Sequence record: PZ445488.1
DNA: 64,000 bases
From: a phage
Reading direction: 5' to 3' (one strand)
Shown here: positions 32,982-39,105 of the stretch, one piece after another
How positions within the stretch are numbered: the stretch's first letter is position 1
Layout of the letters: each line of letters starts with the position of its first letter
Made by a program: the position numbers and the translations under genes
Notes under the pieces: model-generated
The model's database searches: none
What the model was told of the DNA's origin: nothing
What the model saw: only the letters and a program-made list of their open reading frames with translations

Positions 32982-33161
32982 TTACGCAACAACCTTTCCA
33001 AAACGAGAAGCATCATCTCGAAGAACTGCACGTGCTCTGCGCATGATCTTCTCAACTGTTTGATTAATACGAGAGTTCGACCCACGCTTGTATCCAGCGC
33101 GTTTAGAGGTACCATCAACTTTCTTTTCAACTGCTTTCTTTGCTTTAGCTTGTTTTGCCAT
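32982..33161 (-). CDS. small basic protein (hypothetical)
   Basis: 59-aa Lys/Arg-rich ORF (MAKQAKAKKAVEKK...RDDASRFGKVVA) in the frame overlapping track ORF 32945..33130; it stops just before the terminator hairpin, whereas the track frame reads through it; coordinates +/-2 nt. Confidence 0.4.
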   Translation of the reverse strand: MAKQAKAKKAVEKKVDGTSKRAGYKRGSNSRINQTVEKIMRRARAVLRDDASRFGKVVA

Positions 33162-33424
33162 TATAAATTCTCTTTAAATGAAAATGCAGGACTTATTGAC
33201 ATTGCCTGCGCAAGCCCTCAAGGGGAACATAGGTTTTGGATATTTAACGACAGGATAACCATAAACCCGTCATCATACCAACCACGACTTAGACAGATAA
33301 CCTTTTTCTGACGCGTGATAGTACAAAATACATTCAAGAGGTACACCGTAAAACTGCCGGGGTCTTAAAACTATAATGATTCGCAAATCATTAATCAGAC
33401 AGTTCGACGGCTCCTCGATTTAAC

Positions 33425-33673
33425 TTACTTCAGGGTAATAATAAAATGACGTACTGCTTTACGAGCTGCTGAAGCCAAAGGCTTAGCATATTTCAGTTCA
33501 TCTTTTGCTTCCAGTTCAGTAGCCAGTGCGGCCTGTGCTGGGTTCAGATGTTTGAAATAACGCAGGATTTCAAGAGCTTCGGCTTCAACATCAATAGATG
33601 CGCCATAGTTTTCGTGACCGTTATTCCATGCGTTGCGTTGCAGTTCAAGAGCGTGTTGTAATTGTTTAATCAT
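33425..33673 (-). CDS. rIII: RIII lysis-inhibition accessory protein (cytoplasmic antiholin)
   Basis: 82-aa helical ORF immediately downstream of gene 31, which is where rIII lies in T4; same length as T4 RIII (82 aa). Confidence 0.65.
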   Translation of the reverse strand: MIKQLQHALELQRNAWNNGHENYGASIDVEAEALEILRYFKHLNPAQAALATELEAKDELKYAKPLASAARKAVRHFIITLK

Positions 33674-33797
33674 TTTAAATTCTCAATTCGAGATAATATT
33701 TAGTAGCCACGTTCTTCTGAATTTCACCTTCTTTCGACAAGTCTCTCAGTTGTAGGCTACCGCTTAGAAGAGTGTTCTCTTCATATAGTTATTTATA

Positions 33798-34130
33798 TCA
33801 CTTATAAAGACACGGAATAGCTTTATAGTGGCATGTTACGAATTTCTGTTTAATTTCTTTAGGTTGTTTAAGACCCAAAGCCACAAATGGGTGTGGAACA
33901 TTTCGAATTTGTCCAACTGGTAGTGGAGTCAAATCACCGACTTCAACAAAACCTTCAGGAACATCAGGACCTACAGAATGAACTACACATAGTTCAGGAA
34001 CTTCACCTTGAACACGTTTACCAATCACAAGTCCTGATTCTGTAACTTCTTCATCACCTGCTTGAGCGGGTTCAGAAACCAAAATGACATATTCACCAAC
34101 AGCACGAATTGGGAGTTGTACTTCAGACAT
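33798..34130 (-). CDS. 31: co-chaperonin gp31 (GroES analogue)
   Basis: 110-aa ORF; matches T4 gp31 (111 aa) as recalled. Confidence 0.93.
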
Positions 34131-34160
34131 CTTATTTCCTTGTTGTTTGACGATAGATTA

Positions 34161-34185
34161 ATAATACCATACTATTCGTAAAGCA
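34161..34185 (-). promoter_or_regulatory. T4 middle-type promoter upstream of gene 31 (MotA box + -10)
   Basis: minus strand reads aTGCTTTA - 12 nt - TATTAT in the 57-nt gap upstream of gene 31. Confidence 0.5.
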
Positions 34186-34187
34186 TA

Positions 34188-34496
34188 TTACATAAGAAGC
34201 AAACGTTCGACCGGAGTACCATCAACCGAAATTACTTTATCAAGACGGAAAGAACGCCACTGGCCTAACTTGGTATCAAATGCTCGAACTGATTCACGAG
34301 GTTCATAACGAACTTCTGTTGCCGGATTGTTATTTTCATATTTGACTTCAAGTTCATCGCGCGAAGCAAACATAGTGCGTACATCACCGTTAGCCTTTTC
34401 AAATACAACACAATGAACGCCTACAGACAGAATAGTTTTAATACGTTCACGAAGAACCATAGTTTCTTGTTCAGTTAAAATCATATTATTCACCAC
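34188..34496 (-). CDS. hypothetical protein (between cd and gene 31)
   Basis: 102-aa ORF overlapping the cd 3' end by about 10 nt. Confidence 0.5.
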   Translation of the reverse strand: MVNNMILTEQETMVLRERIKTILSVGVHCVVFEKANGDVRTMFASRDELEVKYENNNPATEVRYEPRESVRAFDTKLGQWRSFRLDKVISVDGTPVERLLLM

Positions 34497-35067
34497 AAAA
34501 GTTTCGGATTTGTTCCCAATTCAGAGAACGAAGATTATTACGAGAGTACTGAATTACTTCAATACCAGCTTGTTTTAGAATATCTGCCCAATTTTCAGGA
34601 GATCGGTCGTATAATTCTGCGTATACGACCTTTTTAATACCTGACTGCGTAATAGCTTTAGTACAATCAGGACATGGAGAAAGCGTCGTATATAACGTAG
34701 CACCTTCAATAGAATTACCTTTACGAGCGGCAAACAAAATTGCATTCAATTCTGCATGGATTTCATTATTAGCAGACCATGCACTATGAGCAGCTCGATG
34801 TTCTTTGGCTAAAACAAAATTATCTACCCGTCCAAATGCTGTAGTGCCTTCTTTATGTCCAGCAACGATGACTGGGATTGGTTTATTCTTCAACCAACCA
34901 TTTTCAGATGCATGTTCGCAACAGTTAACGCCACCTGCAGGTGAACCGTTATATCCAGTAGAGATAATGCGTCCATCTTTTTCAATGACGGCACCAACTT
35001 TCCATGAACAACATTTTGATTCTTGAGAAATCAGATATGCAATCTGAAGGTATGTGCTAGCTTTCAT
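34486..35067 (-). CDS. cd: dCMP deaminase (Cd)
   Basis: 193-aa ORF; matches T4 Cd (193 aa) as recalled; zinc-binding motifs HAE and PCxxC present. Confidence 0.94.
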   Translation of the reverse strand: MKASTYLQIAYLISQESKCCSWKVGAVIEKDGRIISTGYNGSPAGGVNCCEHASENGWLKNKPIPVIVAGHKEGTTAFGRVDNFVLAKEHRAAHSAWSANNEIHAELNAILFAARKGNSIEGATLYTTLSPCPDCTKAITQSGIKKVVYAELYDRSPENWADILKQAGIEVIQYSRNNLRSLNWEQIRNFCGE

Positions 35068-36059
35068 TATTGAACCTTATTAATATAAGTTAACAGCTCT
35101 TTAGTTTGTTCCCAACTGATGCACGCATCGGTAACGGAAACGCCATAGGACATATTATCAGAAATTTTTTGATTTCCTTCATGTAGGAACGATTCTATCA
35201 TAATTCCTTTGACCAAATCATTAGCTGCTAAATTTTTACCAATACCAATTTGATTGCTATAATGCCCATCAGCGTTTGCATGGCTACAGTCAACCATTAC
35301 ATAATGATTCAGACCTACTGCCCTTGCTTTGTTAGAAGCTTCTTGAATATCAGAAGAATGATAGTTCGGGCCGTTGGTCCCGCCACGCAATACGATATGC
35401 GTATTCTGATTACCTTCAGCTTCAACAATGCCTACAGTACCATCGACGTCCATACCCATATACCGATGAGGCCAGGCGGCACTATACATCGCGTCTGTAG
35501 CTACTTTAATAGAACCATTGGTTGCGTTCTTAAAGCCTACGCACATCGGTAGACCTGAAGCAATTTCACGATGTGTCTGACTTTCAGTCGTACGGGCGCC
35601 AATAGCAACCCATGAGAAAATACCAGAAAGATACTTAATCGTGAATGGGTCTAATACTTCAGTTGCTAATGGAAGTCCCATACGTAGAAGTTTACGACAC
35701 AATGTTCGTGCAACTATAAGACCGTGGTTCATATCAAAACTTCCGTCAAGATATGGATCATTTACAAGACCTTTCCAACCTACGGTAGTTCGAGGCTTTT
35801 CAAAATAAACGCGCATCACTAACAGAACATTAGGAAGACGAGTTTGAAGTTCAGCCAGACGTTTGCCGTATTCAACAGCAGCAATAGGGTCATGAATTGA
35901 ACAAGGACCTACAACAATAAGTTTGCGTGGGTCTTCACCGTTCATAATCGAATTAACTTGTTCGCGATGAGAAGCCACTTGTGATGCGTAAGCTTCCGAC
36001 AAAGGAATAATCTCAGCCAGTTCTTTTGGAGAAATAAGTTTTCCGACGACAGGTAACAT
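35067..36059 (-). CDS. 3-deoxy-D-arabino-heptulosonate 7-phosphate (DAHP) synthase, class I (AroG/AroF-like)
   Basis: 330-aa ORF with the class I-alpha DAHP synthase signature blocks LIVVGPCSIHD, VMRVYFEKPRTTVGWKGL, GARTTESQ, GFKN, VLRGG, DCSHANA, IESFLHEGNQ and TDACISW; AT-rich phage-like codon usage; ATGA overlap with cd. Confidence 0.85.
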   Translation of the reverse strand: MLPVVGKLISPKELAEIIPLSEAYASQVASHREQVNSIMNGEDPRKLIVVGPCSIHDPIAAVEYGKRLAELQTRLPNVLLVMRVYFEKPRTTVGWKGLVNDPYLDGSFDMNHGLIVARTLCRKLLRMGLPLATEVLDPFTIKYLSGIFSWVAIGARTTESQTHREIASGLPMCVGFKNATNGSIKVATDAMYSAAWPHRYMGMDVDGTVGIVEAEGNQNTHIVLRGGTNGPNYHSSDIQEASNKARAVGLNHYVMVDCSHANADGHYSNQIGIGKNLAANDLVKGIMIESFLHEGNQKISDNMSYGVSVTDACISWEQTKELLTYINKVQ

Positions 36060-36179
36060 AACAATCCTTAGGAGATATAAACAGATTCTGATTCAACAAT
36101 ACCTTTAACCGGATTAGACAGGCTAAGTTGGTAGTGCTCAGATTTATGACCATTCTCGATAGTAATGAGATAGCTCTCA

Positions 36180-36416
36180 TTATAGTGTTCCATATACTCG
36201 AGTTGCTTCAACAAGACCATCACTGCCTAATTTAAGATTAGTAATTTGGTCACCATCTTTAGGATTAACGATTATGAGAAAAGAACGTGGAGATTCTTGA
36301 ATAACTCGTAATGTTGCATCCTGGAAACGTTCAGACACTTTATTGATGAGTGCTTGAGCAAATTCTTTTACTTTAATCTGAAATTCGTGTACTGTAATTG
36401 GGTTTTCACTTAGCAT
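36180..36416 (-). CDS. hypothetical protein (cd-pseT interval)
   Basis: 78-aa ORF preceded by an early-type promoter (GTTTAC - 18 nt - TACTAT) at about 36430-36465. Confidence 0.45.
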   Translation of the reverse strand: MLSENPITVHEFQIKVKEFAQALINKVSERFQDATLRVIQESPRSFLIIVNPKDGDQITNLKLGSDGLVEATRVYGTL

Positions 36417-36476
36417 TTCTATTTCCTCATTTGTTGGTAGAGTTATAGTATCACAACTCCACCATGTTGTAAACCA

Positions 36477-36752
36477 TTAAATTGCTTTGCATTCAATTTT
36501 TTGTGTACCGAAATTGATATCACATTGGATAACTAAATCACCGTCAAGATCAAATACCACTATGACGTGTGCAGACCCAGGGAGAAGAGTAATAGCAATA
36601 GAATCTACTTGGTCTGGGAGCAAAGCATTGAGTACATGAGTTAGTTGAGCATGAACTCTGAGTTCGGCTGCATTATCAAGCACTTCAAACATATTATTAG
36701 CAATAATCTGACTGAAGACTACCTTTACAATTTCAGAATAAGTTGGGAACAT
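36477..36752 (-). CDS. hypothetical protein (cd-pseT interval)
   Basis: 91-aa ORF, compact packing. Confidence 0.45.
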   Translation of the reverse strand: MFPTYSEIVKVVFSQIIANNMFEVLDNAAELRVHAQLTHVLNALLPDQVDSIAITLLPGSAHVIVVFDLDGDLVIQCDINFGTQKIECKAI

Positions 36753-36759
36753 AATTACC

Positions 36760-36984
36760 TCAGTGTACAGTATTTACTTTAACTCGAACAACAAATCGCT
36801 CGGTCGGTTCACCTACAGGAACGAACTCTACATGATATTCGCCTTTGTAACGAGTATTCAGATCATTACGAATTCCTGCGAGTTTGTTTATTAATGTAGG
36901 ACTCATATTAAGTCCCACTAGTTTACGAAGCATTTTGTATGCTTCATCTTCGATTTCATGATGTTTATCGTACATAGTTTTCAT
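36760..36984 (-). CDS. hypothetical protein (cd-pseT interval)
   Basis: 74-aa ORF. Confidence 0.45.
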   Translation of the reverse strand: MKTMYDKHHEIEDEAYKMLRKLVGLNMSPTLINKLAGIRNDLNTRYKGEYHVEFVPVGEPTERFVVRVKVNTVH

Positions 36985-37155
36985 TTAACCATTCAATTGC
37001 CTGGTCGACGTTATCAAATATACCACCGTCCAAACGTTCTTCATGCTCATAGTCCAGCACATCAATACCGAACTGTCCATTTACTAAAGGCCAGGCAACA
37101 AACAAATATTCTTTATGCCGTTCAATGGCCTCAATCACTTCATATAATCGTTTCA

Positions 37156-37156
<1 letters not shown>
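36965..37156 (-). CDS. hypothetical protein (cd-pseT interval)
   Basis: 63-aa ORF whose start abuts the pseT stop. Confidence 0.4.
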
Positions 37157-38242
<1,086 letters not shown>

Positions 38243-38243
<1 letters not shown>

Positions 38244-38542
38244 TATTTTATTCCTAAGAAAGTTTCAAGAATACGAATGTTATGCTCGCGCCGGTCTTTA
38301 TTAATTTCAGCAACGTTTTTATTAATTGATGTACTTCTAACGTTTGAAGAAATAAATTTAATAATATGACTTTTGAGTTGTTGCAAATCCAACCCTTTTT
38401 CTTTAGCCGCTTTACGAAGAGCTTTACCTGCTTCATCTAGTGCCTTTGCTGCATCTTCGTCACAATTGTCAAGTGACATTCCACGACAGATATCAATATA
38501 CTCATCCGACCGTTTGATGTAATTCTCTAGTAATGTTTTCAT
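38243..38542 (-). CDS. hypothetical protein
   Basis: 99-aa ORF preceded by an early promoter (GTTTAC - 18 nt - TATAAT) at about 38556-38590. Confidence 0.45.
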
Positions 38543-38599
38543 TTAGATTTCCTCAATTATCCATAGGAGCATTATACTCTGCTCCCAAGAGTTTGTAAA

Positions 38600-38824
38600 C
38601 TATTTTACTAAAGATTCAATATACTCATGAAGAGCTTTAGTCGCTACTGCCCACTTGTTCTGATATTCATTTTTCAAATTAGCACGAGACTGAACTAACA
38701 AGCGGTCATTAGTCGGAGGCAAAGATTCTAATCGTTGAATCTGGCGTCCATAAATCATAGCCGCCATTTCAGAATCATAAATAAGCCCTTTAAGGTACTC
38801 GTGTTGTTCTTTAGTCATTGACAT
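38600..38824 (-). CDS. hypothetical protein
   Basis: 74-aa ORF. Confidence 0.45.
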   Translation of the reverse strand: MSMTKEQHEYLKGLIYDSEMAAMIYGRQIQRLESLPPTNDRLLVQSRANLKNEYQNKWAVATKALHEYIESLVK

Positions 38825-39105
38825 TTTTCCTCTTTTAAACCACTACGATAATAACATAACATAGTCTTCTGGTCATGTACATATCTTTTTACGTCGTTTA
38901 ACCAGATACGAAATTCTTGAGAGTCTTCAAATGGCATTCCAACCCATGGATTACCATCAATAACCTTTACTTGCCATTTCTGGTTATATTCAACAATAGA
39001 TTCAGGCCATGGCGGATGTAAAGTTTCTTTAGGGCTTAAGGGCACATCCTGGGCACATCCAGCCAAAATACCAATAGATAATACAACTGCGGCTAATTTA
39101 ATCAT
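38815..39105 (-). CDS. outer-membrane spanin lipoprotein (o-spanin, T4 pseT.2-like)
   Basis: 96-aa ORF with signal peptide and lipobox ILAGC, Cys near the C-terminus; directly downstream of the i-spanin-like ORF with a 4-nt overlap. Confidence 0.65.
   Translation of the reverse strand: MIKLAAVVLSIGILAGCAQDVPLSPKETLHPPWPESIVEYNQKWQVKVIDGNPWVGMPFEDSQEFRIWLNDVKRYVHDQKTMLCYYRSGLKEEKCQ

Follow-up and report, generated by a model that had tools for sequence, protein, structure and literature searches.

Carbon entry into the bacterial shikimate pathway is controlled at the step of DAHP (3-deoxy-D-arabinoheptulosonate 7-phosphate) synthase, mostly through feedback inhibition but also through repression (PMC9529685). 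In E. coli AroG, residues Q151 and S180 (AroF Q152 and S181) bind the main chain of the inhibitory Phe or Tyr, the P150L substitution makes the enzyme fully feedback resistant, and S180F and F209A/S are feedback resistant as well (PMC9529685). Homologues of these enzymes have also been noticed in phages: a 2020 preprint lists the DAHP synthase of Mosigvirus as an auxiliary metabolic gene of unknown function (bioRxiv 10.1101/2020.01.19.911818), the genome paper on phage phiC120 reports the domain in ORF 64 (PMC8022965), and a study of Klebsiella phages considers the gene of Kanagawavirus KLB31 an auxiliary metabolic gene, with a guessed role in the supply of aromatic amino acids (PMC11845039). 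Here we analyzed such a gene, located at positions 35067-36059 in a stretch of 64,000 nucleotides (nt) of phage DNA (sequence record PZ445488.1; the whole stretch is hereafter called the window). We consider it rather probable that its product is an active, feedback-insensitive, resident DAHP synthase, which would keep the host shikimate pathway open in the course of infection.

The phage DAHP synthase is already known as an annotated gene mentioned in the literature. The region 33000-39000 of the window matched Escherichia phage CEV1 (Mosigvirus) at 100% identity and many Mosigvirus genomes at about 98%, and an identical protein (100%) is present in GenBank. A homologue was found in 213 phage records (identity of at least 95% in 140), under the names ‘phospho-2-dehydro-3-deoxyheptonate aldolase’, ‘aroF’, ‘AroG’ and ‘3-deoxy-7-phosphoheptulonate synthase’, or as a hypothetical protein. 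An earlier note, made from the letters of this DNA, had proposed to establish how widespread and how annotated the gene is in T-even phages; the novelty that the same note implied did not hold, since many phage records in GenBank carry an annotation of the gene, which also has a PHROG family of its own (PHROG 5045) and appears in the literature. The aldolases annotated in T4-like phages (e.g., ATK47 gp050, JS09, PEi20 ORF-233, KLB31) form one and the same family with the protein studied here, which is nothing different from them. These records and the papers give the name only, without regulatory-site analysis or experiment, and full-text literature searching revealed annotation-level mentions and no enzymology, genetics or expression data. 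What is added here is the rebuilding of the allosteric site throughout the phage clade, the evidence pointing to long residency and to expression early in infection, and the presence/absence polymorphism bounded by repeats. The gene and the codon of its first metal ligand are located as follows.

35067-36059, minus strand: coding sequence of the class I-alpha DAHP synthase (3-deoxy-7-phosphoheptulonate synthase), 330 amino acids (aa), identified by the open reading frame (ORF), profiles and an AlphaFold2 model
35901-35903, minus strand: codon of the metal ligand Cys53 (Cys61 in AroG), by alignment with AroG, AroF and AroH

The product of this ORF is a class I-alpha DAHP synthase. The ORF lies at exactly the coordinates given in the earlier note, all eight motifs listed there (GPCSIHD, KPRTT, GARTTESQ, GFKN, LRGG, DCSHANA, HEGNQ, TDACISW) are present in the translation, and the class assignment made on their basis is borne out by the profiles and by the retention of the catalytic residues. 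The search against Pfam PF00793 (DAHP_synth_1), which the note had suggested, gave a strong match (E 5.2e-75, 252.3 bits at a cut-off of 25.5). The NCBIfam equivalog TIGR00034 (aroFGH) and the subfamily PRK12755 were matched with 427.7 and 455.1 bits, above their cut-offs of 173.2 and 343, and the scores with the AroG-specific model NF006723 (363.2; cut-off 568) and the AroH-specific model NF009396 (386; cut-off 463) remained below the threshold. In the PHROG 5045 profile (E 3.2e-182) residues 1-330 occupied positions 8-337 of 341. The AlphaFold2 model, computed from an alignment made without E. coli sequences, had a pLDDT (predicted local distance difference test) of 91.5 and superimposed on the solved class I-alpha enzymes 4hso, 1kfl and 8e0z with a TM (template modeling) score of 0.95 and a root-mean-square deviation of 1.8 Å. 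It displayed the (beta/alpha)8 barrel with the additions characteristic of class I-alpha, i.e., the beta6a/beta6b hairpin (strands 198-203 and 209-214) and the N-terminal extension, the latter being 9-10 residues shorter.

Seven phage orthologues from six named genera were aligned with E. coli AroG, AroF and AroH, and 14 of the 14 AroG catalytic positions checked were identical in all seven. These positions, as judged from AroG structures, we take to be the metal ligands and the contacts of phosphoenolpyruvate (PEP) and those of erythrose-4-phosphate (E4P). The metal ligands C53, H260, E289 and D311 correspond to AroG C61, H268, E302 and D326, and the PEP/E4P residues R92, K97, P98, R99, T100, G163, A164, R165, K186 and R234 of AroG are retained (10 of 10); thus none of the metal- or PEP-binding residues checked, the loss of which would have spoken against the earlier assignment, has been lost. 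Judging by its sequence, the phage enzyme is very likely to be catalytically active. Its best solved structural match by sequence was E. coli AroF (6agm, E 5e-105). The phage enzyme is 51% identical to AroF (6agm, 6agl) over the whole barrel and shares with it the metal ligands, the KPRTT loop, the PEP and E4P residues, the hairpin (in the model) and Gly at position 212, but it lacks residues 1-10, carries Ile, Lys and Pro in place of P151, Q152 and S181 and Tyr in place of F210, and is shorter (330 versus 356 aa), with two short deletions near the C-terminus.

The differences from AroF thus include the site of feedback inhibition. In the numbering of AroG, the pocket replacements are P150 to Ile141, Q151 to Lys142, S180 to Pro171 and F209 to Tyr200, three of them specified by the following codons.

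35634-35639, minus strand: ATT AAG, codons of Ile141-Lys142, replacing AroG P150-Q151, by alignment
35547-35549, minus strand: CCG, codon of Pro171, replacing AroG S180/AroF S181, by alignment

The phage proteins begin at the position of AroG I10/AroF I11, and the start of the gene in the window leaves no place for an ORF longer than 330 aa. AroG D6 and D7 (AroF N7 and N8) are therefore absent; in the AroG-Phe structure D6/D7 presumably close the inhibitor pocket from the partner subunit. The N-terminus is 9-10 residues shorter than in both AroG and AroF, as the earlier note had stated for AroG, and its guess that the enzyme may escape feedback is strengthened, at the level of sequence, by the three further substitutions of inhibitor-contact residues. 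The aromatic feedback site (P150, Q151, S180, F209 and N-terminal D6/D7) was not recovered in the phage enzyme, a departure concerning regulation and not catalysis, and among the features that bind Tyr in AroF the Q152, S181 and N-terminal segment were missing, only G212 being kept. Since the N-terminal lid is missing and three inhibitor-contact residues are replaced, Tyr, Phe and Trp probably do not inhibit the enzyme.

The signature of a short N-terminus combined with I-K, P and Y was common to the 31 sequences of the phage clade with two single exceptions, one sequence having Pro at position 150 and another having Arg at position 151; the pair I-K was counted in 30 of 31 and Pro at position 180 in 31 of 31. 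None of the 98 closest cellular relatives possessed this signature, Q151 being present in all 98 and S180 in 97 of them. Within the phage clade 10 of 16 pocket positions were invariant, more than in random sets of alignment columns (permutation P = 0.005), so the rebuilt pocket does not appear to be decaying. Two divergent T4-like variants stand apart in metagenomic contigs: one protein (P0022, contigs L015 and L016) keeps P150 along with K151 and P180, and its gene is not directly followed by cd, the deoxycytidine monophosphate (dCMP) deaminase gene; the other (P0020, contig L017) has I-R instead of I-K in the usual order of pseT, DAHP synthase and cd.

The altered positions 150, 151, 180 and 209 are the same as those changed in laboratory feedback-resistant (fbr) alleles of aroG (P150L, S180F, D146N, F209A/S; PMC9529685). 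In contrast to these alleles, the phage changes are natural, multiple and clade-wide and involve other replacement residues, while D146 of AroG is unchanged in the phage enzyme. Engineering of the N-terminal domain of AroG/AroF alters the same element that is naturally truncated in the phage enzyme.

On a broader scale, represented by 125 diverse class I-alpha DAHP synthases (50%-identity representatives), Q151 was found in 68 and S180 in 77, and Pro occupied position 180 in 21 of them. Hence Q151 and S180, invariants among the 98 nearest relatives, fail as family-wide invariants, and the pocket state of the phage enzyme appears unusual among its sequence neighbors and not unique in the family. 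A short N-terminus, defined as less than 12 residues ahead of the first conserved helix, was observed in 17 of 112 diverse representatives, and non-canonical residues at Q151/S180 occurred in 16 of these 17 versus 46 of 95 other members (Fisher p = 3.5e-4). This association supports the loss of the lid and the pocket together and suggests that the enzymes with a short N-terminus and without Q151/S180 are a recurrent, probably unregulated subclass. The phage enzyme resembles these enzymes of cellular organisms in the short lid and altered Q151/S180, but they are at most about 45-50% identical to it and have other combinations of residues. One of the diverse representatives, P0121, is a protein of 799 aa with two DAHP synthase domains in tandem.

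For comparison with other viruses, 68 full-length loci from IMG/VR were checked, 10 of them T4-like. Only these 10 possessed the phage pocket signature; Ser occupied position 180 in all 58 others and Gln position 151 in 52 of the 58. A general viral trend towards deregulated DAHP synthases is not supported by these 58 loci with their canonical pocket. The 58 include 42 contigs of giant-virus metagenome-assembled genomes (IMG/VR GVMAG, within loci L035-L089); their putatively viral class I-alpha DAHP synthases are 40-47% identical to the phage enzyme and have intact active sites, and while S180 is present without exception, four of them have His in place of Gln at 151. Aeromonas phage HJ05 (locus L009, 4899-6062), which has 79 kb and is not T4-like, encodes a homologue of 387 aa annotated as ‘hypothetical’ and 38% identical, with an intact active site, a long N-terminus, A-H at positions 150/151 and P at 180; it was probably acquired independently.

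The DAHP synthase is an old, resident and dispensable accessory gene of T4-like phages. Its GC content was 41.3% versus 38.0% in the window, and its GC content at third codon positions (GC3) was 29.6% versus 50-57% in E. coli aroF (50%), aroG and aroH, in line with the AT-rich, phage-like codon usage described in the earlier note. Ratios of nonsynonymous to synonymous substitutions (dN/dS) between genera were 0.10-0.24, dS being saturated, which indicates purifying selection. Amino acid identities to the DAHP synthase of CEV1 were 77, 68, 67, 68 and 58% in the other five genera, where the flanking cd and pseT were 83, 76, 79, 72, 65% and 59, 57, 68, 57, 45% identical, respectively. The gene has thus diverged in step with the flanking cd, pseT and gp31, which fits a shared descent with the locus and not a recent transfer. 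The 31 phage-clade sequences formed one bipartition in 96 of 100 neighbor-joining bootstraps, and among 5.8 billion proteins no cellular one exceeded about 55% identity to the phage enzyme. The search for a cellular donor gave best cellular matches, 50-55% identical, that were spread over several phyla (Enterobacterales AroF, Pseudomonadales, Planctomycetota and Pontiella) and pointed to no single donor; the neighbor-joining tree resolved no sister group of the phage clade. As expected of viral auxiliary metabolic genes, the gene has cd and pseT on its flanks in complete genomes of T4-like phages, is conserved and is under selection. The earlier view of a resident gene rather than recent host DNA agrees with the phage-like composition, the low dN/dS, the 51% identity to AroF and the same slot in six genera.

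This slot, between cd and cd.2, holds the gene in Mosigvirus, Kanagawavirus (Entb_45, PEi20), Kagamiyamavirus (EcS1), Marfavirus (PWKp18), Winklervirus (X20) and Bragavirus (PM2), i.e., in six named genera, as well as in a metagenomic T4-like contig. In the same interval T4 has cd.1 and RB69 has nothing, in line with the earlier note, to which no gene of this size or function was known between cd and pseT of T4. Within Mosigvirus the slot is occupied in about 140 records, and about 11 have an empty junction, including RB69, JK36, JK42, moha and several assemblies of mar005P1. Nearly identical natural pairs that differ in carrying the gene thus exist, such as the mar005P1 records LR027383 and OZ035759. 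The segment of 1,113 bp that comprises the gene and the spacer preceding it is flanked by an imperfect direct repeat of 19 nt (16 of 19 identical).

36165-36183, minus strand: left repeat copy, ATAATGAGAGCTATCTCAT, 19 nt, segment boundary
35052-35070, minus strand: right repeat copy, ATAATGAAAGCTAGCACAT, 19 nt, representing the start of cd, segment boundary

The repeat corresponds to the sequence of the cd.2 stop and cd start and is present in a single copy at the cd.2/cd junction of RB69. Such a pattern would be expected either from a deletion between the repeats or from an insertion duplicating the start of cd. A preprint credits Mosigvirus phages with arabinosyl-hydroxymethylcytosine modification of DNA (bioRxiv 10.1101/2020.01.19.911818). 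A link of the DAHP synthase to this modification was rejected as a lead, since RB69 has no DAHP synthase gene. The modification was reportedly first described in RB69.

On the minus strand the order of genes is pseT, four small ORFs including cd.4/cd.3/cd.2, a spacer of 120 nt, DAHP synthase, cd, 31.1 and gene 31, so that the gene lies, as the earlier note had placed it, between cd and the small ORFs proximal to pseT. The features of this locus are listed below.

34188-34496: 31.1 homologue (WYL_2, SH3-like)
34486-35067, minus strand: cd, dCMP deaminase, 193 aa (Pfam dCMP_cyt_deam_1, E 1.6e-26; 72.5% identity to T4 cd)
35065-35069, minus strand: TAATG, in which the DAHP synthase stop overlaps the cd start by one base, read from the sequence
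36060-36179, minus strand: 120-nt spacer from cd.2 to DAHP synthase, found in Mosigvirus only (0-43 nt in other genera)
36065-36070, minus strand: TAAGGA, Shine-Dalgarno-like, 5 nt before the ATG, read from the sequence
36180-36416, minus strand: cd.2 homologue (DUF7320), 78 aa, the upstream gene, placed as in RB69 and T4 (PF24005, E 1.5e-35)
36445-36473, minus strand: early-promoter-like, sigma-70-like site TTTACA-17-TACTAT with TG, between cd.3 and cd.2, from a promoter scan
37156-38055, minus strand: pseT

The junction with cd, described in the earlier note as an ATGA overlap, is actually the one-base stop/start overlap TAATG (35069-35065). The promoter-like site aligns with the region of the T4 early promoter Pe133295, for which the T4 record gives the matching place between cd.3 and cd.2 (GGTTTAC...TGTGATA(T/C)TAT); for this reason cd.2, DAHP synthase and cd probably form one early transcription unit, and the earlier designation of an early gene finds agreement, by homology, in the location downstream of this site. 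The spacer region holds an ORF of 41 aa (ATG at 36193, stop at 36068-36070, the stop forming part of the TAAGGA ribosome site) and an overlapping ORF of 55 aa (36013-36180) starting at a TAATG overlap with cd.2. The reality of both is doubtful; the spacer is identical in ATK47 and therefore offers no variation by which coding could be judged. The fold of the 120-nt spacer RNA was not significant (z = -0.88).

The syntenic 68 kb of the close relative ATK47 contain no annotation of a further shikimate gene, in agreement with the earlier note, which had seen none in the window; the neighbors in ATK47 are the usual frd, td, nrdAB, denA, rnlA, alc and pseT, and an alc homologue is encoded nearby in the window. 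The deposited annotations of the neighboring genes are inconsistent: the 31.1 homologue is labeled ‘tail fibers protein’, and in GenBank counterparts cd appears as ‘ribD’, ‘tadA’ or ‘tRNA-specific adenosine deaminase’ and pseT as ‘zeta toxin’ or ‘AAA family ATPase’, while RefSeq ATK47 lacks any cd.2 annotation. The cd protein of RB69 (locus L002, 8743-9252) ends about 24 residues before those of CEV1 and T4 (193 aa), with …ADILKPSWY*, and its C-terminus looks frameshifted or truncated.

Several observations weigh against an unregulated enzyme that is expressed early and benefits the phage. The literature searched contained no enzyme assay; the natural changes P to I, Q to K and S to P differ from the laboratory-tested P150L and S180F; the Gly typical of Tyr-type enzymes (AroF G212) is retained; the pocket stays canonical in the other viral DAHP synthases of IMG/VR; and the gene is dispensable, being absent from T4, RB69 and about 11 Mosigvirus records. 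The promoter scan did not exceed chance (13 sites versus 15.6 expected), and the argument for the promoter therefore rests on homology of position and sequence. The conservation of the pocket fits a locked pocket and equally a pocket binding another ligand. The affinity to AroF could moreover point to an ordinary Tyr-sensitive isozyme, by which a regulated DAHP synthase would be added to the infected cell: AroF is both the closest E. coli paralogue and the best structure (51% identity), the PRK12755 cut-off is passed, Gly at AroF position 212 is kept, and the pocket is conserved, not decayed. The replacements of Q151/Q152 by Lys (one Arg), S180/S181 by Pro and P150 by Ile (one Pro) and the absence of the N-terminal residues argue against it, however, and the ‘Tyr-sensitive’ label found in GenBank was transferred by homology only; we consider this explanation unlikely.

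The same conservation would be understandable if the rebuilt pocket bound another effector, for instance a nucleotide or a phage-specific metabolite, the enzyme being re-regulated and not deregulated. The new pocket state is held across genera that are 58-77% identical (10 of 16 positions invariant, P = 0.005), and the gene is embedded in a nucleotide-metabolism cluster beside the allosterically controlled cd; yet the sequence suggests no ligand, the pocket segment, which adjoins the active site, shows strong conservation in cellular enzymes as well, and the missing N-terminal lid speaks for a pocket that is smaller or closed and not for a new one, for which reasons we give this possibility little weight. 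It is quite improbable that the drain on PEP and E4P, and not the product, is what the phage gains, by pulling on the non-oxidative pentose-phosphate pathway or lowering PEP for nucleotide synthesis. The location among the nucleotide-precursor genes frd, td, nrdAB and cd and the annotation of no other shikimate gene in the corresponding 68 kb of ATK47 would suit such a drain, and cyanophage genes redirecting the pentose-phosphate pathway are known; but the idea is pure inference, finding no support in the sequence, and constitutive host enzymes would still process the DAHP, the two effects being inseparable by sequence. As for a recent capture of host DNA, a contaminant of the assembly or a decaying pseudo-enzyme without function, a cellular-type metabolic gene in a lytic phage that is missing from T4 and RB69 might evoke such an origin, but the 213 phage records, the phage-like GC3, the identity to cellular proteins not above about 55%, the shared locus of six named genera, the intact active site and the dN/dS of 0.10-0.24 refute it, and it retains hardly any probability. 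Composition, synteny, the low cellular identity and purifying selection rule out recent capture or contamination in particular.

Considering these facts and reasons, we propose for the active and feedback-insensitive resident enzyme the following scheme. The promoter upstream of cd.2 would drive early transcription of the gene along with cd, and the product of the gene would condense PEP and E4P into DAHP, the pocket through which the cellular AroF, AroG and AroH are switched off having been rebuilt and feedback presumably lost. T4-like phages shut off host transcription. After infection, the host aro genes would thus no longer be transcribed, and the host DAHP synthases present would remain under feedback control; since the host step is feedback-controlled and host transcription is stopped, an early unregulated phage enzyme would open the pathway, regardless of the level of aromatic amino acids or of the amount of host enzyme present. 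It would keep carbon entering a shikimate pathway that is otherwise host-encoded, with later steps carried out by host enzymes, and the chorismate so obtained would feed the synthesis of aromatic amino acids and perhaps also that of p-aminobenzoate and folate. By default the benefit is read as a supply of aromatic amino acids to the burst of phage protein synthesis, and p-aminobenzoate and folate could serve the neighboring thymidylate and hydroxymethyl-dCMP enzymes. Because the gene is dispensable, the benefit is probably conditional, being confined, e.g., to nutrient-poor or stationary hosts.

We see about an even chance that the phage protein is a naturally evolved, clade-wide ‘fbr’ enzyme with a pocket frozen through at least six genera, either locked in the active state or re-tuned to another effector. 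The question raised is why strictly lytic coliphages retain the gatekeeper enzyme of aromatic biosynthesis, and the natural phages with and without the gene, together with a simple assay, make the feedback part of it directly testable. A stable, naturally feedback-resistant enzyme, if confirmed as such, would be usable in metabolic engineering and biotechnology. For the biology of T4-like phages, the proposed role would mean that control of the flux into the shikimate pathway lies with the phage and not with the host, a rare takeover by a coliphage of a control point of amino acid or cofactor biosynthesis, and that one phage gene suffices to open this pathway when the genes of the cell itself are silenced.

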